Below, in pieces: positions 3,286 through 58,194 of a stretch of 64,000 nt of DNA. Made by a program: the position numbers and the translations under genes. Source of the stretch: Candidatus Magasanikiibacteriota bacterium (GTDB taxonomy: Bacteria > Patescibacteriota > Patescibacteriia > Magasanikbacterales > GWA2-37-8); NCBI GenBank assembly GCA_016182085.1, contig JACOYB010000008.1, forward strand, positions 10,507 to 74,506, given 5' to 3'. Position 1 is the stretch's first letter, and each line of letters begins with the position of its first letter. The notes beneath the pieces were generated by a model. That model had not been told where the DNA came from. It saw only the letters and a list, made by a program, of their open reading frames with translations, and did no database searches.

Positions 3286-3726
3286 TTAAAACGGAATATC
3301 TTCTACTTTCACTTCTTCTTCAATTACTTCTTGCGGCGCTTCGGATCCAAAGGCGGTATCTGAAGGTCCGGATGAAGGGGCTGAAGTTGTGCCAGCAGAT
3401 TTGGAATCAAGCATGATCATGTTTTCACCCACAATTTCGGTACGGTATCTCTTTACGCCGTCTTGACCAGTCCATTCGCGAGTTTGCAATCTGCCTTCCA
3501 CATACATTTTACCGCCTTTTCGCAAATATTGACTGCAAATTTCGGCCAGCTTCCCCCACATTACCACATTATGGAACTCGGTCTGTTTTTGCTTTTGACC
3601 GTTTCCATCTATCCAGACTCGGTTGGTGGCAAGACCAATGGTGGCCACAGCTTTACCATTTGGAGTATTGCGGAGTTCAGGGTCTCGAGTAAGTCGTCCG
3701 ATGATCATTGCTTTATTTAAATCCAT
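3286..3726 (-). CDS. ssb: Single-stranded DNA-binding protein
   Basis: LNKAMIIGRLTRDPE, VEGRLQTR, acidic tail EDIPF. Confidence 0.98.
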   Translation of the reverse strand: MDLNKAMIIGRLTRDPELRNTPNGKAVATIGLATNRVWIDGNGQKQKQTEFHNVVMWGKLAEICSQYLRKGGKMYVEGRLQTREWTGQDGVKRYRTEIVGENMIMLDSKSAGTTSAPSSGPSDTAFGSEAPQEVIEEEVKVEDIPF

Positions 3727-3840
3727 ATGCGAAATGAATGAGGGAAATAGCCGATGAGATATTTATAACCGCTTGCGAGTTATAAATATTGAAGCTGGAT
3801 ATTTCCGAGTGAATGAGTATATATGGGCTTTAGCCCATAT
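3724..3840 (-). promoter_or_regulatory. Structured leader element ending at ssb ATG (second copy before dnaN)
   Basis: GGGCTAAAGCC-CATATATACTCATTCACTC-[hairpin]-CTCATTCATTTCGCATATG; arms shared with 56986-57069. Confidence 0.75.
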
Positions 3841-3857
3841 AAGTAAAATAATTTAAA

Positions 3858-4349
3858 TTAAACTCCTGGAATTATATTTTCGTTATCAAGGATAGCATTA
3901 AGCTTTTCGTCAATGTCCTTAAGATCTACTTTCTTTTCTTCGCTGATTTCTTTAACAACCGGAGAAGATTTCGGCTCTGCAACAGCGCTTTCTTCCTTCT
4001 CTATCATGGTGGTAACACCTACTTCGTTAGTGCTATAAACGATCTTTTTAGGAGTGGTTGCGTTGGTATTAAAAATTGTGATCATGCTGCGAAGTACATC
4101 TGATCGTAATTTCAATTTACCAGAGATAACACCTACTGCTTCCGGCTCGGCGTTAAAGACGAGTGTGTAATAATATCCGTATCGAATTTGTTTGATAGGA
4201 TAAGCTAACCTAACTTTACCAAGGTTGTTAAGTTCCACGTCTTGACCGCTGGAACTTACTAAATCTTTTATTTCTTGTACTTGTTTACCGGCTTCCTTTT
4301 CATCCAAAGTACCTGGCAAAACCAGTAATAGTTCGTATTTTTTCAACAT
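3858..4349 (-). CDS. rpsF: 30S ribosomal protein S6
   Basis: YELLLVL..GKVRLAYPIK..G.Y..LRSMI; C-terminal extension. Confidence 0.95.
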   Translation of the reverse strand: MLKKYELLLVLPGTLDEKEAGKQVQEIKDLVSSSGQDVELNNLGKVRLAYPIKQIRYGYYYTLVFNAEPEAVGVISGKLKLRSDVLRSMITIFNTNATTPKKIVYSTNEVGVTTMIEKEESAVAEPKSSPVVKEISEEKKVDLKDIDEKLNAILDNENIIPGV

Positions 4350-16125: not shown

Positions 16126-19100
16126 TTATTCTGCGGCTGTGCTGGTGTTAACAATATTTTCGGCGGGAGGCTGTTCCAAAACAACCGGTTCCGTGCTGCT
16201 GGCAACCGGCTCAATGGTTTCCGATACGGTAGAGGTGGAGGGGTCTGTAGTAGTAGAAGTTGTTGAACTTGGGCTTTCTTGAGAAACTTCTGGAGTTTCT
16301 GGAATACCTGCACCCCCGGATGATTCATTTATAGCTTCCGGAACAACTTCTTCGGGCTGTAATACTTTGGCAATCACCGTCCAATCAAACGCAGCATTGC
16401 TTTGGCCGTTTTCATTTTCTTTCACTACAAAGCTGTCATAATTTCTTTCTGATACATACACGCCTTTGGTGTCGCCAGACATCGTAATTTGAATATTAAG
16501 CGGTACGGATCTATCTATAATTGCCTGATCAAGATCGGTTAAAACTACTCGTCTTGTCCCATTTTCCAAAGTGCTGGTGCCGGAAATTACGATTTCCTGT
16601 TTACCAGCGCTTTGCAAACCATAAATTTCTTTGTCGCCAACCGCGGTTGTGATTTTTTGTATTAAGTTGCCAAACTCATCAATTTTCCATTTATCATCTT
16701 TGCCAATAATACCGGCCACGTTAATAATGGAATTATTTTGCAAATCAAGATTGCCGCCGGAATATACTAATTGATTATTATTACTTTCCACGCTTAATGT
16801 ACCTGGGTTAGCTCCTGGAGAAAGATTTATACCTTGAGCTATTGCCAACTGTTCTATATTATTATGCAAATTATCTATATCTTTATCTCTGTTATACACC
16901 CAACCGGTTCTAATTAACGCTAAAATTTTACCGGTTGAAGAAGCTGGCAATGGCTCAAGCGCCACCCCAATTATACCTACAACTTTATTATTCTTGTCCT
17001 TGGTCGGATCATATTTCATGGCAAATCCGGCAGTTGACGCGCTCACAAGCAAGTCACCTCTGGCAATGGCGCCATTTTCAGCAGAAACTTTTACCGGCAC
17101 GCGGCCCACCATGGCTAGTACGGCCGTGTAATCTGTCTTGCCATTCCCAACTACGATAGTTGGGTTGGTAGAAATTACACCAGCCACCGATTGTTCGTAA
17201 GCAGAATTGCTACGACGGTATGTATCTGGCGAATTTGGATCTACCATCATTACATCTCCAGCTTCAGCCGTATCGTCAATGGCAATATCTACTCGTTCGG
17301 CTAAATCTCCCGGATTAGTGGAAGTGCCCAAGACCGCGCTTGCGCCATAGTAATTGCCGGAAGTATGAACATCACCATTGGCAGCCACAGAGAATACTGA
17401 ATTATTATTAGCTCGCAGAGAAATAATATAATTATCGGCCAGAGGCGAAGTAAAATTGGCGGCATTAAAGGTAAAGGCTCTTGACCCGGCAAAACTACCA
17501 ACATTAGATTCAAACAATGTGGAGGTGGCAAATGAAAGCTTGTTGACTATGCTGTTATTGGCAAAGGAAATATTGCCGGAAATGATAAGATCAAAAGGAT
17601 TGGTAGAATCGCCAACGGTAATGGTGCTGCTGGTAGTATCTATCGTTAAAGGCGACTGTCCCGGCGCCCAAGAAGGCGAAATAAAGACTTCAATGACGCC
17701 AGTGCCGCTGCCAGCAAACGATTCCAGCGCCCGACCGACAATTACTCCGTCTTTTTTAGCTTTCATACCAACGCCGGGCAACGAGGAAGCGGCAATGGGG
17801 TCGCCAGCCAGGATGGGGCCATTTTCATCGGAGACTTTGGTCGGCACGCGACCCGACAGAGTGACAAGACGCCCATCTTCGCTGCTCGTCCAATCGGAGA
17901 GCCGGATACCGGGGTTCGTGGAAATTACACCAACTACCCCATCATAGGCGCCGGTTGTTTTTTCCACGGTTGGTCTAACGCCGGAAGAAGAAGTGGCTAT
18001 CCGTACGAGGTCGCCGGCCGTGATTGAAAGGTCATCCACACGGTATGACTCGGCCAAGTCAAAGCCTTCAATCTGGAACTGCTTTCCCCAGAAGCTATTG
18101 GCATAGACGTTCATAAAGAAAGCGCCAAGAGAACCGATATTTGAGCCGCCGGTAAAAGAGCCGCCGGTGGTATTTTTACAGCCGGGGGTCGCGCATTTTG
18201 CCGCTCTCAAATCAAGATCTGTGACGTTGTAATAACTAATTACCGGCAAGCCATCCGTGCCAATGGCGATGGAGGTGAACTGGCCCTGATTTCCGGTGCT
18301 GTCAATGGTGGTGGTAACATTACCCGATGAGCAGGAGGCGTTGCCGCATTTTGCTACCCTCAGATCAAGATCTGTACCGTTGTAATAACTAATTACCGGC
18401 AAACCATCTGTGCCAATGGCGATGGAAGAGAGTTGGCCTTGATCTCCGGCGCTGTCAATCGTAGTGGTAACATTACCCGATGAGCAGAACGAGTTGCCAC
18501 ATTTTACTACCCTCAGATCGCCATCTGTACCGTTGTAATAACTAATTACCGGCAAGCCATCTGTGCCAATGGCGATGGAGGTGTCCTGGCCCTGATCTCC
18601 GGTGCTGTCAATCGTAGTGGTCACATTACCCGATGAGCAGGAGGCGTTGCCGCATTTGGCTACCCTAAGATCGCCATTTGTCGCATTGTAATAACTAATT
18701 ACCGGCAAGCCATCTGTGCCAATGGCGATGGAGGTGTCCGTGCCCTGACTTCCAGTGCTGTCAATCGTAGTGGTCACATTACCCGATGAGCAAGAGGCGT
18801 TGCCGCATTTTGCTACCCTAAGATCAAGATCTGTGACGTTGTAATAACTAATTACCGGCAAGCCATCTGTGCCAATGGCAATGGAGGTTTCCTGGCCCTG
18901 ATCTCCGGTGCTGTCAATGGTGGTGGTAACATTACCCGATGAGCAGGAGGCGTTGCCGCATTTGGCTACCCTAAGATCGCCATTTGTCGCATTGTAATAA
19001 CTAATTACCGGCAAGCCATCTGCGCCAATGGCAATGGAGGAATTCGAACCCTGATCTCCGGCGCTGTCAATCGTAGTGGTCACATTACCCGATGAGCAGG

Positions 19101-22100
19101 AGGCGTTGCCGCATTTGACCACTCTCAAATCAAGATCTGTGACGTTGTAATAACTAATTACCGGCAAGCCATCTGCGCCAATGGCGATGGAGGAGTATGA
19201 ACCCTGATCTCCGGCGCTGTCAATGGTGGTGGTCACTTGAGTAGATGCGCCAGCGGTCGGCGAGGCATTTGGCAAGACATTACCATCAAAGGTGGATGTG
19301 CCAACCACGGAAAATATAGAAACTGGCGAAGAGGAATTAACCCCAATATTTCCATTTGCCAGCACTCTTAACATACTAGCACCAGTAGATGAGGCAATAT
19401 CAAATAATGGAGTGCTGGTAGGAGTGCTGAAAATGTTAAATGTCGCTCTTTGCGACGTGGTATTTATACCAACTCTACCAAGAGCATCTATTCTTATTCT
19501 TTCAGTTCCAGCTGTCCAAAAAGCCATGCTGTCAGCACTAAGTTGAGACCCACCAGCAAATGTATATCTAATTACACCTCTATTTTGTGCCGTGGTATCA
19601 AAGAATATATCGCTGGTTCCGTTAGTAGCCGCCGTAATGGCAATAAGTCCTTGCGTTTCTGTAGTATTACCTACTTGTAAATCCGCATTTGGAGCATCCG
19701 TACCAATACCAACATTACCATTTTGTAAAATTCTAAACATGCTGGAGCCGGTAGATGATGCAATTTCCAAAGGATTTGCACTGGCTGCTCCTTGCAAAGC
19801 CAGGCTGGCTATTGGCGAAGTTGTGTTAATGCCAATACGCCCATCGTGTAATATTCTTAAGTAGCTAGCACCGGAAGAAGAAGCCACCTCAAAAATAGAG
19901 TTCCCTCCATTTGTAGATGAAGCTGCAATAGTAAAGAATGCCAAAGGAGTAGTTGTACCGATACCTACTCTACCGGCATTAGTAATAGCCATTTTTTGGA
20001 AAGCCGAACCATTGCCGCCGGTTTCAAACTTTATTCCACCTGCATTTGCATTAAAAACTAACCCACCCGAGATATTAGATTGTGAAGACAAAATTCCGGC
20101 ATCCTGCCAGCCTGTAACAGCTGTATAGCCAGTTCCTGCGGTAAGCAATAAAACTCGATCATCAGTTCCTAAACCTCCATTTCTAAAATCAAATCCCGCA
20201 GAGGCGCTAGATCCAGAATTGTTATTATCAATTCTAAGACCAGACTGAGCAGATTGATCTAGGCGGGCATGGATTAATTCACTTGGTGTAGTCACTCTAA
20301 CTCCAAGGTTGCCAGTCATTACACCCACATCGCCATTTGTTAAAACACGGAATAAACTGGCGCCAGTAGATGAGGCAATTTCCACAGGATCTGCGCTACC
20401 TGTTCCTTGTAAAGCCAGAGTGGCTATTGGCGAAGTTGTGTTTATGCCAACTCTGCCATTTTTATCTATAACAAACAAAGATGTATGATTGCCAGCGCCG
20501 TTTGCCAAAGCATTGGTACCTACATCAAATAAATAAGCATTTGTTGAAGACATGGCCGTGACTAAAGGAGAAACACGCAGAGCGGAAATATATTGACCGT
20601 TATATGATGGGGATGTTGAAACAGTGGGGGCAACATCAAGCCCGATAAAATTTCCTGTACCAGAACCAGGATTAAACGTTCCTCTAACTTGCGCCATAGT
20701 AGAAGTCCCTGAGGTAGCTTGACGTTGGTTGTCATCATTAAAGAATACTGAAACACCGGATAAATTAGTTGCAAGGTTTCCCGCCACACCCATACCGGTA
20801 TTAGTATAGGCACGGATATATGGGTTTGTGCCTGCAAAGAAATACTTACCAAAGCTGGAGGTAAATATAAGCCCGGCGCTTTCTGAGAACTGGAAGCTAT
20901 GACTTCCGCCAGAGCTTTTTAAAGTTAGATCGCCAATTGAATCTGTGCTTAGAACAGAAACTGATGATGTTACTATATTTATAAGAGGAACTCCTCCTTG
21001 ACCGGTAAGCGCAAACGAAGCGACTGGAGTTGATGTGTTTATACCAACCCTGCCATTTGCCACCACCTTTAATATATTTGATCTTTCCGCAGTATCAATA
21101 CTAAATAGAGAAGAACTTGCTCCGGTAGACGAAGCAAAAACAGATATTGATCCTTGCGACATTATGCCTCCGGTTCCAACATTTAATCCTGTGCCGGCCA
21201 TAATGTTGCCCTGAGCAAAAATATCATTTCTGGATTGAATGTTTCCGACTTCGGCGCTGTGGGCGATAAGGCTGGTAACTTCCGTGCCGGAGATATCAAT
21301 AACAAACATAGAATTTAAACCACTGCTTACTGCATAGAGATAACGACCAGAGACAAAAATGGAGTTAGAACCGGCGTTTGTACCTAAAGCAAGCGTGGTA
21401 ATAAGAGTCGGCGCCGAAGAGCTAGAAACATCAACAACAGCAATGGTTTGATTTGATTGATTTGCCACATACGCATAGCGGCCGGAGACAAAGATGGAAG
21501 CAGGACCTGAACTCGCACCCACAGAAGTGGTGGCAATCTGTGTTGGCGCAGACGCATTTGAAATATCAATAACAGAAATACTATCAGATGTGTCGTTGGC
21601 TGTATAAGCGTAACGACCGGAGACATAAATGGACATTGGTCTTGCATCCACAACAGTGCTAGAAACTTGAACGGGGATTGATGGATTGGAAATATCTACA
21701 ACAGAAACAGTATTGGCGGAAAAATTAGTTACATAAGCATATTGGCCGGAAACATAAACTGAGTTTGCCCCATCACCAACAGAAGTGGTGGCAATTTGCA
21801 CTGGCGCTAACGGGTTGGATATATCAACAACAGACATGCTATCTGAAGTAAAGTTCGCCACATAAGCATAGCGGCCGGAGACATAAATTGATCTTGGGCT
21901 TGAACCAACCGCAACGGTAGAAATTTGTCTTGGAACTGCGGCGTTAGAAATATCTATAATTGATATGTTATTACTACCCTGATTTACTGTATAAGCGTAA
22001 CGACCGGAGACAAAAATTGACCGTGGATTTGTGCCAACGGAAGTGGTGGCAATTTGCACTGGCGCTGCCGGGTTGGATATATCAACAACAGATATTGTGC

Positions 22101-25100
22101 TGGAATTATAATTACCAACATAAGCGTAGCGGCCGGAGACAAAAATTGATTGGGGGCTATTTTCCACAGAGGTGGTAGAAATCCTGGAAATAACGGTATT
22201 AGCATCCGTAATGTTGGAAATATTTCCGACTACGGATAATTTTTGGGTTGGGGTAGTCGTGCCAACACCTACATTGCCATTTGCATTTATTCTAAAAATG
22301 TTTGTTGAAGGAGAAGAAGATACTATATCTAAAATAGGATTGCCACTGGCGGCAGCTTGCATGGTGATAAATGCGTTGGCAGAGGTGGTGTTAAATCCAA
22401 AATATGGAGCTTCGCCAATATTAAAGACGGTGTTATTAGAGCCATTTAAAACTTGAAATTCATTTATACCATTGCCATTAGCATCAATTCTCATAAAAAT
22501 TGAGTTATCAGAATTGATATTGAATCCATTATCCCCTTGTCCGTAAATTTCTACGCCTCCCGCGCTATTTACCAAGTTAACAATAGCGCTATCACTGGCA
22601 GTGCTGTGCACTATATCTCCGTTTGTTAAAATTCTAAATAAATCCGCCCCGCTAGAAGATACAACGGCAAAAGGATTTGTTCCGGCCGTACCTTGCAAAG
22701 CAAGGCTAGCAACCGGTGAAGAAGAGTTTATGCCAACTCTGCCATTTGTCAAAATCGTAAACATAGAAGAGGCGGCGGCAGTGTTAGTGACAACCGAGAA
22801 AGGATTTACAGATCCAGATCCTTGGACTGCCAAACTTGCCGACTGAATAGTAGTAGTGCCGACAAATATTCCGGTTTTGGCAAAAATGTAGCGCGGATTT
22901 CTCGTGCCGCCGCCTATATCAAAAGTATTATCGGTGCTAAAACCAACATCGCTGCCGAACAATGTAGCGCCGGTACTATTGCCAACTATGGTTTGATTAG
23001 AAGAATTAAGGCTAATTAAATTTAGATCTCCGGTGTTGGCGGCGTTTCTTATATTTATGCCTGTATTGGTTGAGAGCCGGATAGCGCCGGCGGTGGCTGG
23101 AACATTGCCAATACTTAACGCGCCGTTTCCGCCAATAGTTAACGCGTTGGTTGGAGTGCTTGTACCAATACCGATATTTCCATTGGATAAAACTTTTATA
23201 ATACTGGAAGAGGCGGCGCTATCAATACTAAATATGGAAGATGTGGAGCCTGTAGAAGATGCAAATATAGACAAACCGCCTTGAGAAAAAATTCCTCCAG
23301 CGCCAACATTTAACGATGTCCCAGCCATGATATTGCCTTGAGCAAAAACATCGTTTCTGGATTGAATATTCCCGACTTCGGCAGAGTGAGCAATAAGACT
23401 GGTAACTTCCGTGCCGGAAATATCAATGATGGAAAAGTTGGATGAAGTGTAATTAGCCGTATACGCATAGCGGCCGGAGACATAGACCGATTTAGGAGCC
23501 GAACCAACAGTGACACTGGTTAATAGGGCAGGATTCGTTGAGCTGGCAACATCAATTATAGACATGTTAGTTGAAGCGCTATTAGCCACATAGGCGTAGC
23601 GCCCTGACACATAGATATCTGTAGGGTCGCCTGCGGAAACAGTACCGACTGTTACGGGATTTGATGAACTGGATATATCAACAACAGAAACAGTATTTGC
23701 GGCATCATTTGCCGTATACGCATAGCGGCCGGAAACATAAATAGATGCTGGGCCTGTGCCCACAGAAGTAGAGGCTATAAATACTGGGGCCTGAGGATCG
23801 GAAACATCAATTACCGATACACTGGCTTCGTTATAATTGGCTGTATAAGCAAACCGGCCCGAGACAAAAACACCGTTAGGCTGAGAACCCACGGTAGTAG
23901 TAGAAATTCTTACCGGAGATAAAGGATTAGAAATATCAATAATGGTCATGGTAGTTGCACTGCCATTAACTACATAGAGATAGCGACCGGACACATATGG
24001 TGATTTAGGGCCGCCACCTACAGTTATGGTAGAAACTTGTCTTGGGGCAGACGGATTGGAAATATCAACTATAGAAACATTAGCGCCGTTACCATTTGTT
24101 ACATAAGCATACCGACCGGAGATGTATAAATCATTTGGGTTAGTACCAACTGAAGTGCTGGCAACAAATCTCGGGTACGCTGGGTTAGAAACATCAACAA
24201 TCGATATGCTATTTTCAACTTGATTGGCTGTATAAGCATATTTACCTGAAACAAAAATTCCAAGTGGGTTTGACCCAACCGAACCAGTACCAACTACAGA
24301 AACAGCAGTGCTTGGATCTGTAATATTAGAAATATTTCCCACCACGGATAATTTTTGCGCCGGGGTACTTGTGCTAATACCAACATTGCCATTTGTTAAA
24401 ATGGTAAACATAGAAGTAGCGGCGGCAGTTGAACTTACAACCGAGAAAGGATTGGCTGTGCCCGTTCCTTGGATAGTTAATTTTGCTTGCGGCGTAGTGG
24501 TGCCGATTCCAATTAAACTGGTTGGTAAAATAAACAAAGTGGAAGTGCCAACCAAGGTTGTTCCATTGGAAGCATAATAAGAAAACTGTCCGGCGGTGCC
24601 GCTACTGACCGTGCCGCTGCCACCTATACCCAAAGAAGACGTGGAAACCCAAGTAACTACCGAACCATTACTTTGAAGAAGATAACCATTTACTCCCAGA
24701 CTGGAAACACTATCATAAATTCCACCCGTTAATGCTAAATCGCCTTGAACTGAAAGAGTGGCTATCGGAGAAGAGGAATTTATACCCACTCGGCCATTTG
24801 TCAGAATAGACAACAAAGAAGCTCCTGTAGAAGAGTTTATACTAAAAGGATTAACCCCGGCCGTACCTTGCAATGCCAAACTGGCTATTGGCGAGGAAGA
24901 ATTTATGCCTACTCGGCCATTTGTTAAAATCGTAAACATAGAAGACGCGGCCGCGCTGGAAGATACAATTGAAAACGGATTTTCTGTTCCACTTCCTTGA
25001 ATTGTAAATTTAGCAGACAGGGTAGATGTGCCTATGCCGATTCTTCCGTTGGCAAGGGCTCTAAATATATATGGCGTCTGAACAGAGCCAATGTTAAAAA

Positions 25101-27564
25101 TAGATGAAGTAGCACCGGTAGAAGAAGCAAAAACAGACAACGCTCCTTGCGATTGAATACCGCCGGCCCCAACAAAAAGCGATGTTCCGACCATTACATT
25201 TCCCTGGGCAAAAATATCATTTCTAGATTGAATGTTTCCGACTTCGGCGCTGTGAGCAATAAGACTGGTAACTTCGGTACCGGAAATATCAAGAACTATC
25301 AGGCCGTTGCTTTGATAATTGGCCATGTAAAGATAGCGGCCGGAGACAAAAACATAACTAGGATAATTAAAACCAGCCCCCAAAAAAGTATTAAGCACAG
25401 CCGGAGCTAAAGGATTAGAAAAATCTACGATAGAAATACTATTGTCGGTGGTATTAGCCGTATAACCATAACGACCGGAGATATGTATTGAAAATATTCC
25501 CGCAATAACAGAGCTTGTCGCCACCGGAACCGGGGCTGCCGGATTCTTAACATCTACGACAGAAATAGTTTCAGATCCACTATTTACCACATAGGCATAG
25601 CGTCCGGATACAGAAATAGAAGATGGATTAGTGCCAAGGCTGGTAGTAGCTATGCGAACCGGATTAAGCGGGTTGGAAATATCAATTACAGAAATACTAC
25701 CGCCGCCATAGTTGGCGGTATACGCATAACGACCGGAGACATATATGGAATAAGGACCTAGGCCCTCCATAGTAGTGGTAGCTACTTTAGTTGGGCGCAA
25801 TGGATTAGAGATGTCTACAACCGAAACGCTATCGCCGCCATAGTTTGCAATATAGGCGTACTGACCGGAAATATAAATTGATCTAGGACCTGTGCCGACT
25901 GAAGTAGTGGCCACTTGCCGAGGGGAAGATGGATTAGAAATATCTACAATTGACATGCTATCTTCACCTTGATTGGCGGTATAGGCATAACGGCCGGAAA
26001 TATATACAGAAGCCGGATTAGACCCTGTGTTGCCTATGGAAGTGCTGGCCACATGCGTCGGAGATGATGGATCAGAAACATCAATTATAGACAAACTTCC
26101 GCTATCAAAATTTGTCATATACACATAACGGCCGGAAACAAAAGGAAACCAAGCGCCGACCTCCATAGTCGTAGAAGCAACTTTAGAAATAGTAGTACTA
26201 ACATCGGTAATGTTGGAAATATTTCCTACGACCGATAATCTTTGAGCCGGAGTAGTGGTGCCAATACCTACATTTCCATTTGTATTTATTCTTAACAAAC
26301 TGGCGCCGGTAGATGAAGTAATATCAAAAGGATTAACACCGGCTGTACCTTGCAAAGCAAGACTAGCAATTGGCGAAGAAGAGTTTATGCCAACACGGCC
26401 ATTTGTAAGCACCGTAAACATAGAACTAGCGGCCGCGGTTGAAGTAAGAATTGAAAACGGATTTGCCGAACCAGTTCCTTGGATAGTCAATTTTGCCTGT
26501 GGAGTGCTGGTGCCAATACCAATTAAACTGGTGGGTAATATGAACAAGGTGGAAGTGCCAACCAAGGTTGCTCCACTAGAAGCATAATAAGAAAACTGTC
26601 CGGCGGTGCCGCTACTAATTGTACCGGTACCAAAGGTAGTGCTATTTATCCAAACCGGTCTGCCTGCGCCAGCTGACATGAGCAAGTAACCAAGTGTTCC
26701 AACTTCGGTGGCGTTGTATCTGGTACCATCTGAATAAATTACCGAACCGTTGGCTGCCAAAGTAGAAGAATTAGTGCCGCCATTAGCAATAGATAAAACA
26801 CCCGTAACATCTGAGGCGGAAGCTAAATTGACGGTGGAAGTTGCCCAATTTCCGGCTGTGACGCGAACCAAACCAGTCCAAGCTTGCGAGTTTTGTCCGG
26901 TACCGCCATATGTAGATGAGATTACCGTTCCGTTCCAAATTCCGGCGGTAATAGTGGCAAAACTAGATCCACCAAAAACATTCAAACTGCCAAGGATGGT
27001 GGAAGTAGAAACCGTAGTGCTGTTAAACGTAAAATTGCCACTACTATCTGATCTGGGAATATAGGGGGTAGTAGAGAGAGTATTTACACCGTAACCGTCC
27101 AAGTATTTTGAATTAAATGCATACGGTGTAGCGGTAATTCTTTTTCTTGGAGTCAAGGTATCGGAACCAATTCTGACTTCTAAATATACGGAACTGTTAT
27201 TTTGAAAAATTGCCGGTTCTAATGAATTTGTGCCAGTATCGCCCAAATTTATACTAAACAAACCTTGGGATGGAGTTGTGCTAACAGCCACAGGAGTGCC
27301 AATCGTACCGCTGGCGGTATATAAAACATTCCCACCACTTGAAGCATCGTACAAAATAAAATACATGTTTTGGCTGGTCGTGGCCAAACGATTACTTATT
27401 AAAAGTTTACCCTGATAGGTAATAATTGATGGAGCAACGGCCGCATTGGCTTTATTTGAAACAAAACCAATAATTGCAAAAAGCAAAACTAGCCCAAATA
27501 TCAAAAAAATGGGAAGGTTTTTCGCATTTCTGCCGCTTCTACGTGGCGTTTCCTCCATAATCAT
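16126..27564 (-). CDS. Giant (3812 aa) fibre-like surface adhesin with LVIVD propellers, a 51-aa repeat block and two putative autocleavage chaperone domains
   Basis: N-terminal TM/signal; repeated GRVGIxTxxP; three blocks of VSGRYAY..S..DIS repeats; two DLAE..GVIST.P..GRVP.KV..GxALE domains. Confidence 0.85.
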   Translation of the reverse strand: MIMEETPRRSGRNAKNLPIFLIFGLVLLFAIIGFVSNKANAAVAPSIITYQGKLLISNRLATTSQNMYFILYDASSGGNVLYTASGTIGTPVAVSTTPSQGLFSINLGDTGTNSLEPAIFQNNSSVYLEVRIGSDTLTPRKRITATPYAFNSKYLDGYGVNTLSTTPYIPRSDSSGNFTFNSTTVSTSTILGSLNVFGGSSFATITAGIWNGTVISSTYGGTGQNSQAWTGLVRVTAGNWATSTVNLASASDVTGVLSIANGGTNSSTLAANGSVIYSDGTRYNATEVGTLGYLLMSAGAGRPVWINSTTFGTGTISSGTAGQFSYYASSGATLVGTSTLFILPTSLIGIGTSTPQAKLTIQGTGSANPFSILTSTAAASSMFTVLTNGRVGINSSSPIASLALQGTAGVNPFDITSSTGASLLRINTNGNVGIGTTTPAQRLSVVGNISNITDVSTTISKVASTTMEVGAWFPFVSGRYVYMTNFDSGSLSIIDVSDPSSPTHVASTSIGNTGSNPASVYISGRYAYTANQGEDSMSIVDISNPSSPRQVATTSVGTGPRSIYISGQYAYIANYGGDSVSVVDISNPLRPTKVATTTMEGLGPYSIYVSGRYAYTANYGGGSISVIDISNPLNPVRIATTSLGTNPSSISVSGRYAYVVNSGSETISVVDVKNPAAPVPVATSSVIAGIFSIHISGRYGYTANTTDNSISIVDFSNPLAPAVLNTFLGAGFNYPSYVFVSGRYLYMANYQSNGLIVLDISGTEVTSLIAHSAEVGNIQSRNDIFAQGNVMVGTSLFVGAGGIQSQGALSVFASSTGATSSIFNIGSVQTPYIFRALANGRIGIGTSTLSAKFTIQGSGTENPFSIVSSSAAASSMFTILTNGRVGINSSSPIASLALQGTAGVNPFSINSSTGASLLSILTNGRVGINSSSPIATLSVQGDLALTGGIYDSVSSLGVNGYLLQSNGSVVTWVSTSSLGIGGSGTVSSGTAGQFSYYASNGTTLVGTSTLFILPTSLIGIGTTTPQAKLTIQGTGTANPFSVVSSTAAATSMFTILTNGNVGISTSTPAQKLSVVGNISNITDPSTAVSVVGTGSVGSNPLGIFVSGKYAYTANQVENSISIVDVSNPAYPRFVASTSVGTNPNDLYISGRYAYVTNGNGANVSIVDISNPSAPRQVSTITVGGGPKSPYVSGRYLYVVNGSATTMTIIDISNPLSPVRISTTTVGSQPNGVFVSGRFAYTANYNEASVSVIDVSDPQAPVFIASTSVGTGPASIYVSGRYAYTANDAANTVSVVDISSSSNPVTVGTVSAGDPTDIYVSGRYAYVANSASTNMSIIDVASSTNPALLTSVTVGSAPKSVYVSGRYAYTANYTSSNFSIIDISGTEVTSLIAHSAEVGNIQSRNDVFAQGNIMAGTSLNVGAGGIFSQGGLSIFASSTGSTSSIFSIDSAASSSIIKVLSNGNIGIGTSTPTNALTIGGNGALSIGNVPATAGAIRLSTNTGINIRNAANTGDLNLISLNSSNQTIVGNSTGATLFGSDVGFSTDNTFDIGGGTRNPRYIFAKTGIFVGTTTIQSASLAVQGSGSVNPFSVVTNTAAASSMFTILTNGRVGINSSSPVASLALQGTAGTNPFAVVSSSGADLFRILTNGDIVHSTASDSAIVNLVNSAGGVEIYGQGDNGFNINSDNSIFMRIDANGNGINEFQVLNGSNNTVFNIGEAPYFGFNTTSANAFITMQAAASGNPILDIVSSSPSTNIFRINANGNVGVGTTTPTQKLSVVGNISNITDANTVISRISTTSVENSPQSIFVSGRYAYVGNYNSSTISVVDISNPAAPVQIATTSVGTNPRSIFVSGRYAYTVNQGSNNISIIDISNAAVPRQISTVAVGSSPRSIYVSGRYAYVANFTSDSMSVVDISNPLAPVQIATTSVGDGANSVYVSGQYAYVTNFSANTVSVVDISNPSIPVQVSSTVVDARPMSIYVSGRYAYTANDTSDSISVIDISNASAPTQIATTSVGASSGPASIFVSGRYAYVANQSNQTIAVVDVSSSSAPTLITTLALGTNAGSNSIFVSGRYLYAVSSGLNSMFVIDISGTEVTSLIAHSAEVGNIQSRNDIFAQGNIMAGTGLNVGTGGIMSQGSISVFASSTGASSSLFSIDTAERSNILKVVANGRVGINTSTPVASFALTGQGGVPLINIVTSSVSVLSTDSIGDLTLKSSGGSHSFQFSESAGLIFTSSFGKYFFAGTNPYIRAYTNTGMGVAGNLATNLSGVSVFFNDDNQRQATSGTSTMAQVRGTFNPGSGTGNFIGLDVAPTVSTSPSYNGQYISALRVSPLVTAMSSTNAYLFDVGTNALANGAGNHTSLFVIDKNGRVGINTTSPIATLALQGTGSADPVEIASSTGASLFRVLTNGDVGVMTGNLGVRVTTPSELIHARLDQSAQSGLRIDNNNSGSSASAGFDFRNGGLGTDDRVLLLTAGTGYTAVTGWQDAGILSSQSNISGGLVFNANAGGIKFETGGNGSAFQKMAITNAGRVGIGTTTPLAFFTIAASSTNGGNSIFEVASSSGASYLRILHDGRIGINTTSPIASLALQGAASANPLEIASSTGSSMFRILQNGNVGIGTDAPNADLQVGNTTETQGLIAITAATNGTSDIFFDTTAQNRGVIRYTFAGGSQLSADSMAFWTAGTERIRIDALGRVGINTTSQRATFNIFSTPTSTPLFDIASSTGASMLRVLANGNIGVNSSSPVSIFSVVGTSTFDGNVLPNASPTAGASTQVTTTIDSAGDQGSYSSIAIGADGLPVISYYNVTDLDLRVVKCGNASCSSGNVTTTIDSAGDQGSNSSIAIGADGLPVISYYNATNGDLRVAKCGNASCSSGNVTTTIDSTGDQGQETSIAIGTDGLPVISYYNVTDLDLRVAKCGNASCSSGNVTTTIDSTGSQGTDTSIAIGTDGLPVISYYNATNGDLRVAKCGNASCSSGNVTTTIDSTGDQGQDTSIAIGTDGLPVISYYNGTDGDLRVVKCGNSFCSSGNVTTTIDSAGDQGQLSSIAIGTDGLPVISYYNGTDLDLRVAKCGNASCSSGNVTTTIDSTGNQGQFTSIAIGTDGLPVISYYNVTDLDLRAAKCATPGCKNTTGGSFTGGSNIGSLGAFFMNVYANSFWGKQFQIEGFDLAESYRVDDLSITAGDLVRIATSSSGVRPTVEKTTGAYDGVVGVISTNPGIRLSDWTSSEDGRLVTLSGRVPTKVSDENGPILAGDPIAASSLPGVGMKAKKDGVIVGRALESFAGSGTGVIEVFISPSWAPGQSPLTIDTTSSTITVGDSTNPFDLIISGNISFANNSIVNKLSFATSTLFESNVGSFAGSRAFTFNAANFTSPLADNYIISLRANNNSVFSVAANGDVHTSGNYYGASAVLGTSTNPGDLAERVDIAIDDTAEAGDVMMVDPNSPDTYRRSNSAYEQSVAGVISTNPTIVVGNGKTDYTAVLAMVGRVPVKVSAENGAIARGDLLVSASTAGFAMKYDPTKDKNNKVVGIIGVALEPLPASSTGKILALIRTGWVYNRDKDIDNLHNNIEQLAIAQGINLSPGANPGTLSVESNNNQLVYSGGNLDLQNNSIINVAGIIGKDDKWKIDEFGNLIQKITTAVGDKEIYGLQSAGKQEIVISGTSTLENGTRRVVLTDLDQAIIDRSVPLNIQITMSGDTKGVYVSERNYDSFVVKENENGQSNAAFDWTVIAKVLQPEEVVPEAINESSGGAGIPETPEVSQESPSSTTSTTTDPSTSTVSETIEPVASSTEPVVLEQPPAENIVNTSTAAE
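18195..19235 (-). repeat. Seven tandem 153-bp (51-aa) coding repeats
   Basis: TAACTAATTACCGGCAA recurs every 153 bp; unit TTTIDSxGxQGxxxSIAIGxDGLPVISYYNxTxxDLRVxKCGNASCSSGNV. Confidence 0.95.
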
Positions 27565-28740: not shown

Positions 28741-29376
28741 TTAAATATTTGTTGAAGCTGAAATGGTCACCGTTTGACTGCGAGAACCTGCGGTGGTTGC
28801 CGAACTAATCGCCGCCTTAAATGTTAAGGTTGTTTCCGCGCTTACAACCGCCGTACTGGATGAAGACAAATTCAAACCTGCGGCTATTCCCCTATCATCA
28901 CTAAAGGCCCTATCAACTCCGCTCACCGCCACACCATACTCTTGTGATCCGGCAGTTACCGTTCCATCCGTAACTGCGGTTAAACTCGTCCCACTTACAC
29001 TGCCAACGGACAACACATAACCGGTGCTCGCGTCCGCGGTAACGGAAAATATGGTCGAGGTGCTCTCCACAGTTAAAACACTTAACGTACCCAGGTCTAG
29101 AGTCGTACTGCTTACTTCCACGACGAGCACACTCCAATCCATTGCCTGATACCCTCCAAGCACTTCATATACGCCACCGGTAGAAGTTCCGGCCGGAGAC
29201 TCGCCTAATGTATCTTCCAAACTATATGTACCGCTGGTACTTAAAATTCCTCCCGCATCTATACTATCGGAAAAAATCGTGTAATTGGTAGAAGACATTA
29301 CACCAAAAGATACGGAAGGAAAAGCAAAAATCCCCACGAGCAGCACTATCACAAACAGACTCAGTGTACGGCGCAT
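28741..29376 (-). CDS. Secreted Ser/Thr-rich beta protein (possibly WxL-like)
   Basis: Signal peptide; SSTNY..DSI..GG; C-terminal TAGSRSQTVTISA strand. Confidence 0.6.
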   Translation of the reverse strand: MRRTLSLFVIVLLVGIFAFPSVSFGVMSSTNYTIFSDSIDAGGILSTSGTYSLEDTLGESPAGTSTGGVYEVLGGYQAMDWSVLVVEVSSTTLDLGTLSVLTVESTSTIFSVTADASTGYVLSVGSVSGTSLTAVTDGTVTAGSQEYGVAVSGVDRAFSDDRGIAAGLNLSSSSTAVVSAETTLTFKAAISSATTAGSRSQTVTISASTNI

Positions 29377-29394
29377 AATTTATTTGGAATTTTA

Positions 29395-31677
29395 CTAATT
29401 CACCCCAGCCAACAATGATTTTATCTTATCAATTATATCCTTGTTATTTGGATTTAGATCTTTCACTTTATAATAATATTCCAAAGCTTTGGCCTTATCG
29501 CCTCTATTTTCATATAACAAACCAAGACTGTATAACGCATTGGAGTAACTTGGTTGCAATTTTACTGCTTCCAACCATAATTTTTCCGCGTCGTTTTTGT
29601 CGGCTCTGGTGCCACGGTTGTACAGCAGTCTTCCAAAGTTGAACAAAATTTCCGGATTATTTCCCGCGCCGGATTGCAATAAATTTTTATATACCTCTAT
29701 CGCCTTATCTGTTTCCTTGTTTAATTCATACGCGCTGCTGAGCGTTACATATGCGCCCAGATAATCTCTTTTTAGAGAAACCGCTTTTTCATAATATTCA
29801 ATGGCTTTGGGAATATTTTTTTGCAGCATATAATTATTTCCCAAGCGCCACATAAGAATTGGGTTGGTAGGTTCTAGCTCGCTTGCTTTATCCAAAGATT
29901 TTATTGCCCAATCGGTGGCTTCAGGAATTAAGGCTGATGTATTTTCATACATCGTAGCCAAATTTTCCCAAATAGCCACGCTGTTTGGAGAAAGTTCAGT
30001 TGCCACCCTAGCTTCATTTACAGCCCTGGATAATAAATCCGTAACAGCCTGCACATTGGGATTGTTTTCTTTTGAAAGCTGGCTTGCCTGTACTAAATAG
30101 GCGCTCGCAATCGCGGTATGATAAATGTCCGAACTGCGACGCAAGGACAACGCTTTTTGTAAACTCATTTCTGTTTGCTCATAACCGCTTTCCTGCAAAC
30201 CGCGAGCAAACACGCGATCGGCCACATAAAATCTTGCGCCAAGAATTCCCACCATTACTACCATCGCCATTACCACGATCGCGCTAAAAGAAAATACCAA
30301 ATTGTACTGAGGCGTATCTTCCAAAGTCCAGTGTTTTTCTTTCACCATATTATGACCAAGGAGTGACAAGCCGGAGATTACAATTCCAAGCAACAACCAC
30401 CAAAAAACCCACAACGAAACACTGTAAAAATTAGTTATAAGTCCTACACATAAAACTACCCAGGCGACTACAACTAAAAATACATCCAACCGAATATTGG
30501 TCTTGGTTAAATGCAAACTATGTGAAATACCAAAGGCCGAGCCCCTGGCTTTAAACCAAGTGCTAAACACATGTCCTAAAACAAAAAGCAGTATAAATAC
30601 AAACCCTAATACTACAAGCACCCCGCCTTCAGCCAGCATCGCGAAGAATGAATTAAGCGGCTGCGTGAATCGCAAAGACCAGGCCGTCGGGTGATAATTA
30701 AAATCCGTTGTTCTAAACTTAGAAAAATCAGATGCGAATGTGCCAAGCCCGCTGCCAACCAAAAAATTCTTGGCGCCGGAAAATAATACATTTTTAGTTA
30801 TTGCCCAAGAAGGAGCCATATCAAGAGAAATTTCTGCCGGCACTATGGACTGCAAAGATTTTGGACTGCCAAAAATTATAAAAATACAAGACAGGATTAG
30901 TAGCGCGAATAATGCCGAAAGCCATCCAAGTCTGGCATCCTGCAAAAAACTTACACCGAGCAGCAATAATAAAATTAAACCGATGAGCATTACCCACCAG
31001 AAAAATCCAAAACCCATAATAAGCAATACTCCTAAGCACAAGATCATTACGAAAAAATAAAACAAGGCGCGGCCAACTTCCACATTCTTTTTTATAAGCG
31101 ATCCGGCCGCGATTATAAATACCGGCATAATCCACAAACCAAACGAGCTATTAATTCCGTCTACCGTATTCCAGAATTGATTTATAAACGGCAAGTCCAA
31201 ACCAAAAGCGGTTTTTAAAATAAATAAAATTGAAGCAAATCCCCCTACTCCGAGTATGGCATCTAGAACTCCGCGCCACCTATCGGGCGTATGCAATAAA
31301 TTGACAAGAATAAAATAAAATAAAACTAAAAAAACAAAAAAACTAAAGTTAAAGACAAAATATTCCGTGCGACCCAAAAAGCTGTCATAAATACTAGCTG
31401 AAAAGAGAGATGATACAAGCGCGACAGATAAAAATATGAGAAGCGGTACATCTAAAATTGACTTACGATAGTGCACTTTCTTGGAAAGAATTGTCTTTAA
31501 GGCAAATAGCAAAAGATTAACCAACAGAAATCCTGAAAAGATATATTGTTTAGGAAGCGCGTACGCGTTAAGCAAATTTCTATCCACAAACAACGGCACG
31601 ACAATAATATTTAACAGAACTAAACCATACGAAAACCAGTCAAAAAATTTAATAGCTTTTTCATTCTGACTAAGCAT
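29395..31677 (-). CDS. O-antigen-ligase-like polytopic membrane protein with C-terminal TPRs
   Basis: About 12 TM helices, GSGLGTF and LAEGG (Wzy_C-like), TPR repeats. Confidence 0.8.
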   Translation of the reverse strand: MLSQNEKAIKFFDWFSYGLVLLNIIVVPLFVDRNLLNAYALPKQYIFSGFLLVNLLLFALKTILSKKVHYRKSILDVPLLIFLSVALVSSLFSASIYDSFLGRTEYFVFNFSFFVFLVLFYFILVNLLHTPDRWRGVLDAILGVGGFASILFILKTAFGLDLPFINQFWNTVDGINSSFGLWIMPVFIIAAGSLIKKNVEVGRALFYFFVMILCLGVLLIMGFGFFWWVMLIGLILLLLLGVSFLQDARLGWLSALFALLILSCIFIIFGSPKSLQSIVPAEISLDMAPSWAITKNVLFSGAKNFLVGSGLGTFASDFSKFRTTDFNYHPTAWSLRFTQPLNSFFAMLAEGGVLVVLGFVFILLFVLGHVFSTWFKARGSAFGISHSLHLTKTNIRLDVFLVVVAWVVLCVGLITNFYSVSLWVFWWLLLGIVISGLSLLGHNMVKEKHWTLEDTPQYNLVFSFSAIVVMAMVVMVGILGARFYVADRVFARGLQESGYEQTEMSLQKALSLRRSSDIYHTAIASAYLVQASQLSKENNPNVQAVTDLLSRAVNEARVATELSPNSVAIWENLATMYENTSALIPEATDWAIKSLDKASELEPTNPILMWRLGNNYMLQKNIPKAIEYYEKAVSLKRDYLGAYVTLSSAYELNKETDKAIEVYKNLLQSGAGNNPEILFNFGRLLYNRGTRADKNDAEKLWLEAVKLQPSYSNALYSLGLLYENRGDKAKALEYYYKVKDLNPNNKDIIDKIKSLLAGVN

Positions 31678-55276: not shown

Positions 55277-56671
55277 ATGTCTAACCACGAAATATGGCAG
55301 GCCGTCCTAGCTGAACTTGAGCTTTCCATTTCCAAACCAAACTTTGTTACCTGGTTTAAAAATACAGATATCTTGTCCTATCAGGATAATTATGTTGTTT
55401 TGTGCGTCCCAAATGACTTTTACCGCGCTTGGATAGAAAAAAACTACCACCAAACCATCGTAAAATCTTTAGAGAGGGTTACCGAAAAGCCTGTAAAAAA
55501 ACTGGAATATAAAATTTTCAACATTAAAAACATTGTTCCTCAAACTCATGAGGTAAAAACTGAAAACCCCGTTCCCGAAACAAATTTAAGCACACCCGAC
55601 TTTTCTTCAAGCGAGGGTAAAATACCGCCTCGTGTCGGTGAGTTTGGCTTAAACCCAAAGTATAATTTTGAAACCTTTGTGGTTGGTGGCGGTTCAGAGC
55701 TGGCTTTTGCCGCAGCCCAGGCTGTGGTAAATAAACCCGGTGAAGCCTATAACCCACTATTTATTTATGGCGGCGTAGGGCTTGGCAAAACCCACTTGGT
55801 CCAGGCTATTGGCAACCACTTGTTAAAGGCCAGACCCAACATTAGCATCATGTATGCCAGCGCCGAGAAATTTTCCAATGATTATATTGCCTCGGTTAGA
55901 GATGGTAATGCCAAAAACTTTCAAAATCGCTATCGCAATATTGATGTGCTTTTAATTGATGATATCCAATTTATCTCGGGCAAAGACAAAACCCAAGAAT
56001 CTTTTTTCCACACCTTCAACGAACTCCACCAGCAAAACAAGCAAGTAGTAATGACCTCTGACCGCCCGCCAAAAGCTATCCCGGCCCTGGAAGACCGCTT
56101 AAAATCCCGTTTTGAATGGGGTATGATTGTGGATGTGGCTCCACCAGACCTGGAAACCAGAATCGCGATTTTGCAAAAAAAATGTGTAGAGAAGAATTTT
56201 CCGCTTAACCAAGAAATTTTACAGCTGGTTGCTACCACTATTTTCCGCAATATCCGCGAACTAGAGGGGGCTTTAAACAAAATTATCGCCCTACATCAGC
56301 TCAAAAACATGGAACCAACTGTGGAATCGGTAAAATCTCTCCTAGCTAACTCCGAGGTCAGGACTACCTACAAATCCATCACCCCCCAACAAATTATTGA
56401 AGCTGCCAGCGAATTCTTTACCATCAACATTGCTGACTTACTTGGCCAAAGCCGAGAAAAAAAATTCTCCTATCCACGCCAAATTATCATGCATCTCATG
56501 CGTAAAGAGCTGAACATGTCGTATCCGGCAATTGGCAACGAACTCGGTGGCCGCGACCACACCACCGCCATGCATGCCGACAACAAAATTAGCAATGATA
56601 TTGAACGAGACAACAAATTAAAACAAGAGATTGAACTGATTAAACAAAAATTGTATATCAATATTACCTAG
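55277..56671 (+). CDS. dnaA: Chromosomal replication initiator
   Basis: YNPLFIYGGVGLGKTHL, LLIDDIQF, NIRELEGAL, GGRDHTT. Confidence 0.99.
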   Translation: MSNHEIWQAVLAELELSISKPNFVTWFKNTDILSYQDNYVVLCVPNDFYRAWIEKNYHQTIVKSLERVTEKPVKKLEYKIFNIKNIVPQTHEVKTENPVPETNLSTPDFSSSEGKIPPRVGEFGLNPKYNFETFVVGGGSELAFAAAQAVVNKPGEAYNPLFIYGGVGLGKTHLVQAIGNHLLKARPNISIMYASAEKFSNDYIASVRDGNAKNFQNRYRNIDVLLIDDIQFISGKDKTQESFFHTFNELHQQNKQVVMTSDRPPKAIPALEDRLKSRFEWGMIVDVAPPDLETRIAILQKKCVEKNFPLNQEILQLVATTIFRNIRELEGALNKIIALHQLKNMEPTVESVKSLLANSEVRTTYKSITPQQIIEAASEFFTINIADLLGQSREKKFSYPRQIIMHLMRKELNMSYPAIGNELGGRDHTTAMHADNKISNDIERDNKLKQEIELIKQKLYINIT

Positions 56672-56985
56672 CAAATATAAAAATACCTGAGCATAAGTTG
56701 TGGATAAGGGAGGTAAAAACAACACTTCTTACACACTCTTTATTAACACTACCAAACACTTATAAACAGATAAAATAAATTCCGAAAAATCCGCCCACAC
56801 TTTATTAGTCCAGTCCGCACAATTTACCAACAGCTATAATTAAGAAAGGTTTGCTAGATATAACGCTTTTTCCGACTTATCCACCCTTATCCACCGCATT
56901 ATAGTAACGATTGTAATTTATTTATAAATAAATCGATATACAATAATAGACAATAAAAATTTACCCACGGTTTTTAATAAAATTT
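56672..56985. other. Probable oriC
   Basis: TGTGGATAA at 56699, tandem TTATCCACC at 56877 and 56887, then an AT-rich tract; between dnaA and dnaN. Confidence 0.8.
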
Positions 56986-57069
56986 TATAGGGGCTAAAGC
57001 CGCATATATACTCGTTCGCTCATATAAAGTTAAAAACATTTAACTTTATATTCACTCATTTCGCATATG
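56986..57069 (+). promoter_or_regulatory. Structured leader element ending at dnaN ATG (second copy before ssb)
   Basis: GGGCTAAAGCCGCATATATACTCGTTCGCTC-[hairpin]-TCACTCATTTCGCATATG. Confidence 0.75.
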
Positions 57070-58194
57070 AAATTCTTTTGCACAAAGGAGAACTTGTCAA
57101 AAGCTTTGGCGCTGGTAATTGGGGTGGCCGGTAAAAATATTAACCTGCCAATACTTGGCAATGTCCTTATCAAGGCGACTGAACAAAAAGTAGAATTTAT
57201 GGCCACTAATTTAGAGTTGGCTATAACTTCCAATCTACGAGCCAAGGTAGAAGTTCCGGGTGTGTTTACGGTACCGGCCAGAACCCTCAATGACTTTGTG
57301 AATTTATTATCTGAAGAAAAAGTTGAGTTAACCCTAAAAGATAACGAGTTAGAGGTGGTGTGTGGGAGGTCTTCAACCAAGATAAAAGGCGCGCCAGCCG
57401 ATGAGTTCCCGGTTGTGCCGGTGGTAGGCGAAGGAAAGGGTTATTTAATAGAGGTAGAGGCCCTTAAGAGCGGTTTAGGACAGGTTTTTCAGGCGGCGTC
57501 AAAGAATGAAATTAGGCCAGAGCTCGCCGGTGTTTTGTTTAATTTCAATGATCAACCAGGGGTGCTTACTTTGGCCGCAACTGACAGTTATAGGTTGGCA
57601 GAAAAGAAGGTAAAAGTGCTGCAAGGAGAAGATAAGGCACGGATAATTATTCCAGCTCGCACGGCGCAGGAAATGAACCACATTTTAATAATTTCCCTAT
57701 CCAAAGGAGCAGAAAGCGAAAAAAACATCCGACTGCTGGTAACCGAAAATCAAATAGTTTTGCGCTGCAATGATGTGGAACTCGTGTCTCGCCTGGTAGA
57801 CGGCCAATATCCGGATTATACCCAGATTATTCCAACCAGCTTTAAAACCGAGGCGGACTTCTCTACAAACCAGATAACCAAGGAAATAAAGGCTGCTAGT
57901 TTGTTCACCACAACTGGTGTAAATGCTGTAAGTTTTGAGTTTGACCCCACAGCCGGGGTTATTCATTTGTCTTCGGTTTCCACCCAGACCGGTGAGTACA
58001 AATCCGAAGTTTCGGCAGATGTTAAGGGTGAAAAGAATAATACGCTTTTGAACCACCGGTATATTTTAGACGGTCTTTCAAATATCAACACCGAGAACGC
58101 GGTGTTAAAGGTAATAAATGCGGACAGCCCGTGCGTGCTTGCGCCAAAGGGCGATCAAAGCTTTGTTTATATTGTGATGCCTATAAGACAATAA
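57067..58194 (+). CDS. dnaN: DNA polymerase III beta clamp
   Basis: PILGNVLI, ATNLE, ATDSYRL, SRLVDGQYPDY, VMPIR. Confidence 0.98.
   Translation: MKFFCTKENLSKALALVIGVAGKNINLPILGNVLIKATEQKVEFMATNLELAITSNLRAKVEVPGVFTVPARTLNDFVNLLSEEKVELTLKDNELEVVCGRSSTKIKGAPADEFPVVPVVGEGKGYLIEVEALKSGLGQVFQAASKNEIRPELAGVLFNFNDQPGVLTLAATDSYRLAEKKVKVLQGEDKARIIIPARTAQEMNHILIISLSKGAESEKNIRLLVTENQIVLRCNDVELVSRLVDGQYPDYTQIIPTSFKTEADFSTNQITKEIKAASLFTTTGVNAVSFEFDPTAGVIHLSSVSTQTGEYKSEVSADVKGEKNNTLLNHRYILDGLSNINTENAVLKVINADSPCVLAPKGDQSFVYIVMPIRQ

Follow-up and report, generated by a model that had tools for sequence, protein, structure and literature searches.

The closest described systems are the IS200/IS605 elements. 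As described for IS608 (PMC3201880), these have subterminal hairpins and no terminal inverted repeats, and the target is picked by pairing with a guide sequence; the same account has them using the lagging-strand template. IS605B/ISC elements are described as having the target N|ATGA and inserting before ATGA (Kapitonov 2016, PMC4810608). According to Di Nocera (2013, PMC3733652), REP and BIME repeats carry a GTAG or CGTC tag, and REPs lie mostly near the 3' ends of genes. The Ssn nuclease has been described together with the NTS/SRM hairpins (Chenal 2025, PMC11893778), and Neisseria REP2 and Borrelia IR-A/IR-B are among the repeats reviewed by Delihas (2011, PMC3184786).

We analyzed a window of 64,000 nucleotides (64 kb) from a Candidatus Magasanikiibacteriota bacterium. 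The original prediction was that ssb and dnaN are preceded by the same structured leader. Both leaders are present, and both gene identities are confirmed: the ssb leader is on the minus strand, with the ATG at 3726-3724 and an inner hairpin of 66 nt, and the dnaN leader is on the plus strand at 56986-57069, with an inner hairpin of 30 nt. They are the only two units of a repeat within the window. Each unit is laid out as a copy of the target, stem-loop A, the complement of the target, a pyrimidine-rich left arm, a variable hairpin B, a right arm, and the target itself. In both units, the right arm is followed by three bases and then the ATG. The folding z-scores of the sense strands are -5.45 for the ssb copy and -2.28 for the dnaN copy. 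The features are:

3286-3726, minus strand: ssb, single-stranded DNA-binding protein; host gene, whose ATG abuts the element
3727-3841, minus strand: whole unit before ssb, with the long form of the inner hairpin; 112 bases are missing in a relative and in co-occurring contigs
3820-3841, minus strand: hairpin A of the ssb unit; the 5' arm is the target copy (TATATG), the loop is TAAA, and the 3' arm is the target complement
about 3818-3825, minus strand: target complement of the ssb unit, as a putative guide
3807-3817, minus strand: left arm of the ssb unit (CTCATTCACTC), whose antisense strand would be one side of the G·A zipper
3742-3806, minus strand: hairpin B of the ssb unit, a long variant, exchangeable among copies
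3730-3741, minus strand: right arm of the ssb unit (TCATTCATTTCG), the other side of the putative zipper, 3 nt from the ATG
3858-4349, minus strand: rpsF, ribosomal protein S6, the upstream gene in ssb's run; the element occupies the gap between rpsF and ssb
55277-56671, plus strand: dnaA (context)
56672-56985, no strand: dnaA-dnaN interval, oriC-like, with DnaA-box-like 9-mers; relatives have this interval without the element
56986-57066, plus strand: whole unit before dnaN, short form
56986-57009, 57011-57021, 57022-57051, and 57052-57063, plus strand: hairpin A, left arm, hairpin B, and right arm of the dnaN unit
57067-58194, plus strand: dnaN, sliding clamp; host gene, whose ATG abuts the element

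The tip of the long hairpin B (3742-3806) is in the opposite orientation from that of a copy on another contig of this genome (C8, near 61200), as in a flip-flop inversion. Elsewhere in the window, at 1352-2987, efp adjoins a gene for an EpmA (GenX)-type EF-P lysine aminoacylase, which scores above the NCBIfam cut-off. The minus strand also contains an ORF of 3812 amino acids (16126-27564).

A dispersed repeat at start codons

The genome that contains the window (G000) comprises 1.06 Mb in 11 contigs. Using a definition of the repeat that is blind to start codons, we found 34 units in it, versus 0, 1, and 0 in three local shuffles. A wider definition gave 52 matches; after discarding 8 without a credible left arm, we had 44 units. 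These are dispersed and the repeat is 70-155 bp long. The ATG of an ORF of at least 60 amino acids is the end point of 27 units, and that of a shorter ORF is the end point of 2; another 9 are internal units of tandems, and 6 end elsewhere (mostly at TATA). Put differently, 27/35 terminal units end at the ATG of an ORF of at least 60 amino acids.

The genes with a docked unit include gap, nusG, topA, ribH, ftsA, metG, priA, rpsA, rplI, rny, ssb, and dnaN, as well as genes for an Smr protein, a thioredoxin-like protein, a glycosyltransferase, and a response regulator. Five of the 27 have no Pfam match. The downstream ORFs in relatives (112 scanned out of 115 collected) are also functionally mixed and span ribosomal, glycosyltransferase, and metabolic genes; ssb appears three times and ligA once.

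As an alternative, the original prediction had proposed a small element that targets (C)ATATG start codons. Docking at ATG across the genome supports the targeting of start codons, but the target is not strictly CATATG: the end motif is NNTATG. Across 207 units, the end is TATG in 152 and TATA in 24. A start-blind scan of GTDB gave 117 unique matches, and 79 hairpin-bearing ones end at the ATG of a frame that is open or has at least 60 amino acids. Among the units of this genome that end in TATG, 27/29 are at starts, where crude gene calls would predict 44% (p = 4e-8). This is a real excess, because TATG in non-coding DNA (by the same crude calls) is at starts in 740 cases and elsewhere in 929. 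The preference for TATG at start codons over other intergenic TATG likely goes beyond sequence alone, with selection involved.

It is true, as originally noted, that ssb and dnaN lack a Shine-Dalgarno (SD) sequence, yet this is ordinary for the genome and not special to these genes, as GGAG, GAGG, or AGGA is found upstream of only 49/504 long ORFs (about 10%) and T is at position -1 of 82% of the 504 starts. The 3' end of the 16S rRNA retains CCTCC despite the scarcity of SD-like motifs. The units contain no SD, and their promoter-like matches (0 and 2) are comparable to those expected by chance (0.9 and 1.3). With crude gene calls, we saw no peak of fixed spacing from a -10 element to the ATG, as leaderless genes would have. 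The region from -15 to +3 is predicted to be more open than background (0.60 vs. 0.48 unpaired), while the AUG itself is predicted to be less open (0.32 vs. 0.43). In Rfam, only tRNAs in the window matched at the gathering level, and units from 12 loci had no credible match at E values up to 5, so we rejected a known Rfam RNA.

Some related sequences do not fit the usual pattern. On contig C11 near 306920, the ATG at the end of a unit begins a frame of just 14 codons, and the unit at this site in the relative G004 has a different hairpin B. Start codons are also the end points of some derivatives that are short or divergent and that have hairpin A together with an arm that is fused or altered; these are on contigs C1 (near 157415 and 39454), C5 (near 11108), and C8 (near 32283), and by translation, their genes are engA-, mraY-, and mreB-like.

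Gain and loss among relatives

A search pattern for the repeat matches 14/15 other genomes of the genus (0 to 39 copies) and 3/9 from the rest of the family; the controls gave no matches. It is found in 39 copies in G012, 28 in G000, 23 in G004, 1 in G010, and 0 in G009. Named records in sequence collections that contain the motif are largely Patescibacteria, and several are labelled Ca. Magasanikbacteria. Within the genus, an intact unit lies before dnaN in 3/16 loci and before ssb in 5/15 loci; two more loci have a degenerate unit and a remnant.

The relative G004 is about 94% identical in genes, and its DnaN is 98.7% identical, and it lacks the unit at both ssb and dnaN. Our comparison with G004 covered about 740 kb of roughly 1 Mb. 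At 26/32 sites in register, the repeat is present in one genome only, and it is present in both at the other 6 (one of these was re-classed by eye). In 9 of the 26 filled/empty pairs, the flanks match at 26/30 positions or better around an insert of 69-155 bp. In the other 17, the left flanks are untidy. The position of the left boundary also shifts by a TA step. In the tidy pairs that we inspected, the empty site is TATG, and a repeat of TAT (up to 6 nt) borders the insert; this repeat may be a duplication or an end of the element that resembles the target. Hairpin B also differs between the two genomes at the same site. Not all copies sit flush before a gene: one in G004 is four codons inside a gene and supplies a new ATG, and one in G000 is inverted just upstream of a start.

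Gain or loss is also visible within populations. Contigs from two groundwater runs of one study carry a joint that skips exactly the 112-bp insert at ssb; this joint is the weaker one, with a short side of only 25 bases and 85% likeness. At clpP, the same two runs skip a 153-bp tandem, with 95% likeness and a 3-nt repeat at the joint. Separately, inside a gene at 2689-2690 of locus L299, contigs of runs X2 and X3 carry 119 other letters.

No effect on the second codon is shown: it differs in 6/15 one-sided pairs versus 59/376 others, and it also differs in 32/92 controls with divergent leaders. As for a phage or viral carrier, we rejected this, since viral contigs gave one match and its flanks do not pair.

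The dnaN copy had been said to abut oriC. It does lie at the end of an oriC-like interval, but we rejected the idea that it is part of oriC, because G004 has the same interval without the element.

A predicted fold of the antisense strand

On the antisense strand, the two arms are purine-rich runs that could form three tandem G·A steps with two ordinary pairs between them. The original prediction described such a zipper on the template strand, made of normal pairs and tandem sheared G-A pairs, and covariation of the arms across 180 unique units supports it as a model. At one pair of positions, we found C:A in 109 units, T:A in 70, C:G in 1, and T:G in 0. To have C:A and T:A without T:G is what a G·T wobble on the antisense strand would give. 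The adjacent pair is Watson-Crick in 167 units (123 if shuffled), and two variable outer pairs are so in 128 and 162 units (67 and 89 if shuffled); these shuffle controls overstate the significance because the units are related. The invariance of the G·A positions is not independent evidence, as our search patterns fixed those positions. There are counter-signs as well: sense-strand G:T occurs at two nearly fixed positions (6 and 4 units), and wobble in hairpin B is symmetric (18 vs. 14).

The loops give independent support for a fold of the antisense strand. In hairpin A, we found GCGNAGC on the antisense strand of 42/214 units but on the sense strand of just 1/214. GCGNAGC is described as an unusually stable DNA mini-hairpin, and the RNA form of a related 8-mer as much less stable than the DNA (PMC13037366). 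The corresponding idea for RNA, a C(UNCG)G tetraloop on the sense strand of hairpin A, fits just 6/214 units, so we rejected it. The loops of hairpin B are T-rich on the antisense strand (250 T of 399 bases). Overall, the conserved pairing looks like that of DNA, on the antisense strand. In NMR studies of DNA hairpins, consecutive pyrimidine-GA-purine blocks with sheared pairs are reported to be favorable (PMC10085684). The zipper remains a prediction, since standard DNA energy parameters do not yield it.

Two sequences are complementary to the 3' arm of hairpin A: the target copy at the left end of the unit, and the target itself at the right end. Among 401 genomes from the phylum, we found matches to the pattern in 17, in some cases by chance in coding DNA. 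In the genus g156, units end at YAAATAA and have a T-rich internal complement that fits. Among 16 terminal copies in g156, which we classified by eye, 9 abut a hairpin and T-run on the opposite strand, resembling a terminator; 4 are 16-28 nt before a start; and none is flush with an ATG. In the genome G398, all four units end at the 5' ends of tRNAs (three called by ARAGORN and one cut by the end of a contig), and the two units with enough flank carry a left copy of the tRNA end and a fitting complement. The tRNA boundary in G398 overlaps the last 1-2 bases of the arm and is not flush. So, the target and its internal complement covary within and between lineages. From the sequences, this would fit an element that is targeted by a guide, and it would equally fit selection for a closed fold after insertion.

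Explanations and relation to known systems

We conclude that the ssb and dnaN leaders are copies of a dispersed repeat that close relatives gain and lose, and that this repeat is probably mobile but non-autonomous and acts in the form of folded single-stranded DNA. By analogy to IS200/IS605 elements, it is likely guide-targeted. The antisense strand would form a single long hairpin: blocks of 2 bp would be interspersed with three tandem sheared G·A steps, and pairing of the target with its internal complement would add about 5 bp. A putative single-stranded DNA nuclease or transposase, acting in trans, would recognize this fold and attach the element to the 3' side of CATA (or TATA) in the antisense strand, with this target chosen by pairing with the internal segment, as with IS200/IS605 guide sequences. 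Because 82% of starts in G000 read TATG, the target in non-coding DNA would mostly be a start codon. Insertion would keep the ATG intact behind a pyrimidine-rich, weakly structured stretch of 15 nt, so an SD-poor cell would tolerate it, and insertions within genes would be purged.

More speculatively, these might be single-stranded DNA mobile elements that are programmed by a guide and have a triple sheared-G·A zipper as their scaffold. Their enzyme would be neither a Y1 transposase nor an Ssn nuclease, different Patescibacteria would have reset the guide to start codons, to tRNA 5' ends, or to terminators, and the elements would repeatedly rewrite the leaders of essential genes in SD-poor genomes. 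This would be a class not yet described. We offer this broader version tentatively and would not be surprised if it were wrong.

We searched for a mobilizing enzyme in a sample of genomes, several of which are incomplete. A Y1 transposase was found in 1/15 genomes of the genus, and in neither G000 itself (0/1) nor the element-bearing genomes (0/5); in the genomes searched, we found no autonomous parent that shares the ends of the repeat. Small GIY-YIG genes are common in the family. No arm lies within about 300 nt of the gene at any of 48 GIY-YIG, DUF559, or reverse transcriptase (RT) loci. A targeted scan of metagenomes for a right arm followed by a GIY-YIG-like start gave 20 matches, including 3 real units before ordinary genes and no cassettes. 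RVT_1 was found in 1/5 genomes tested, and not in G000. We therefore rejected Y1 transposase, small GIY-YIG, DUF559, and RT as partners, as none is linked to the arms in the genomes and loci searched. We also found no bias in the direction of replication: with the leading strand judged from local GC skew, 19/29 units are co-directional, as compared to 679/943 genes (72%; p = 0.41).

Some GIY-YIG loci have an arrangement of their own. On contig C11 of G000 at about 28900-29400 (L217), and at L394 and L397, a small GIY-YIG gene has part of a duplicated tRNA 5' end on one side and the intact tRNA gene on the other, which is the arrangement that insertion of a nuclease mini-cassette at the 5' end of the tRNA would leave. 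At L215 and L218, Ssn-type GIY-YIG genes are bracketed by GTCAT-type hairpins, and the left repeat is a few bases before a TATG start. In G114 (L336 and L319), a hairpin unit that is related and rich in pyrimidines forms a tandem array, which is cut off by the ends of two contigs; one end is beside a tRNA and the other is before a small GIY-YIG gene, which is a possible lead to a mobilizer.

One alternative to a guide-targeted element is that the repeat, however it is copied, persists at start codons as a portable leader that improves SD-independent initiation. This would account for the placement of TATG-ending units at real starts beyond what the available sites predict, and it suits a genome in which just 49/504 genes have SD-like motifs, the predicted openness of the pyrimidine-rich stretch before the AUG, the docking at ssb in 5/15 loci of the genus, and the G004 copy that supplies a new ATG. 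However, it is the antisense strand whose pairing is conserved, this pairing is of the DNA type, turnover is fast (26/32 sites are unshared), none of the 16 terminal copies in g156 is flush with an ATG, and a copy in G000 is inverted, so we consider this explanation unlikely.

Another alternative dispenses with a dedicated enzyme: replication stalled at hairpins, or the uptake of single-stranded DNA by transformation, would lead to template switching at TAT/ATATG microhomologies, and gene conversion would swap the modules. We did not find a mobilizer in the genomes searched, the boundary repeats vary (3-6 nt), genomes can have different hairpins B at a shared site, and a gene for a PilB-like type IV pilus ATPase is present in the window, all of which favor this account. 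Still, it does not readily explain why the right boundary is fixed, why distant lineages retain the G·A scaffold, or why the internal complement and the target change in step, and we think that it is improbable.

A third mechanism would be RNA-templated insertion, in which a reverse transcriptase runs off the 5' end of an RNA (a tRNA, or an mRNA cut at the start codon) and continues on the element, after which the chromosome takes up the cDNA by recombination. Docking in three lineages is at RNA landmarks, namely start codons, the tRNA 5' ends of G398 (4/4), and the terminator-like hairpins of g156 (9/16). We consider this quite improbable, as RVT_1 is present in just one of the five genomes tested (and not in G000), many targets are internal genes of operons, and the tRNA boundary overlaps the end of the arm rather than being flush.

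Last, a cis-regulatory leader or single-stranded DNA priming signal that is specific to replication genes and sensed by SSB or DnaN, as originally proposed, is very improbable, because the copies precede genes of scattered function in G000 and in relatives, not one pathway, and are patchy before orthologs of dnaN (3/16) and ssb (5/15). The replication genes ssb, dnaN, priA, and topA are 4 of the 27 targets in G000; the other 23 are not replication genes. Those frequencies at ssb and dnaN do exceed the roughly 0.2 genomes expected per gene (a hand estimate), so ssb is docked more often than the average gene, which favors the earlier view, and mini-hairpins are reported in known priming signals (PMC13037366). 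But the 112 ORFs of relatives include ssb three times and ligA once, other genes recur likewise (DUF167, rplX, thioredoxin, and frr), and the nearest relative lacks the element at both ssb and dnaN. We thus rejected a replisome regulon.

If a mobile repeat is the correct explanation, then a mobile unit of 80 bp has replaced the translation leader of about 3% of the genes in this small genome, including many essential ones, in the time that it took for two genomes to diverge to 94% identity. The repeat would also be a natural, selected case of a repeated sheared G·A DNA fold that is known mainly from NMR of short oligonucleotides. The matching changes of target and complement across lineages may point to a re-programmable insertion system. 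For annotation, a structured leader that is shared by several genes in these genomes should not be taken as evidence of a regulon.

We found no description of this repeat in print, although the supplementary repeat lists of PMC3733652 and PMC11893778 could hold related families. The available part of a recent preprint on non-coding mining does not mention Patescibacteria. TIGR arrays and kink-turns were set aside on their layout, as generally described.

Correia and ERIC repeats are TA-duplicating MITEs: short, gene-less, and with AT-rich ends that contain TA. Our repeat is similar in all of these latter respects, but it lacks Watson-Crick terminal inverted repeats, and it docks at starts in one orientation. 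Like REPs and BIMEs, it consists of small, dispersed palindromic units that are intergenic and form tandem mosaics. Unlike theirs, the foot of its palindrome carries neither a GTAG nor a CGTC tag, and in the G000 lineage the repeat ends at start codons (27/35 terminal units); placement downstream of coding sequence is seen only in g156. The NTS repeats of Ssn are also strand-specific hairpins of single-stranded DNA in many copies, and Ssn-type cassettes exist in G000 and also abut a TATG start. However, our repeat has a different sequence, and its arms flank none of the 48 nuclease or RT loci. As reviewed in PMC3184786, Neisseria REP2 and Borrelia IR-A/IR-B share with it a copy number of about 20-30, two internal stem-loops, the lack of terminal inverted repeats, and an end in the downstream ATG. 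REP2 is described there as carrying a promoter and a ribosome-binding site and marking co-regulated genes, whereas our repeat has no SD, no promoter above chance, and quick turnover.

The likeness to IS200/IS605 elements and PATEs is more extensive. These share subterminal imperfect hairpins without terminal inverted repeats; a fixed, short target (4-5 nt) that contains ATG and is kept on one flank, in line with the TATG that remains at empty sites in the G000/G004 pairs; and an internal sequence that is able to pair with the target. The differences from IS200/IS605 are that no Y1 (TnpA) transposase was found with the repeat, that it has no replication-strand bias, that it has an apparent boundary repeat of 3-6 nt, and that its ends would form a G·A zipper, which is not described for any family in the portions of the sources that we compared. 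Because it fails the tests of transposase and strand bias, we do not file the repeat under IS200/IS605; by analogy, it would work most like a gene-less derivative of this group. In sum, the repeat is real and is not a regulator of replication genes. It is most likely a mobile repeat that acts as single-stranded DNA hairpins, and docking at start codons is most likely its target in this lineage.
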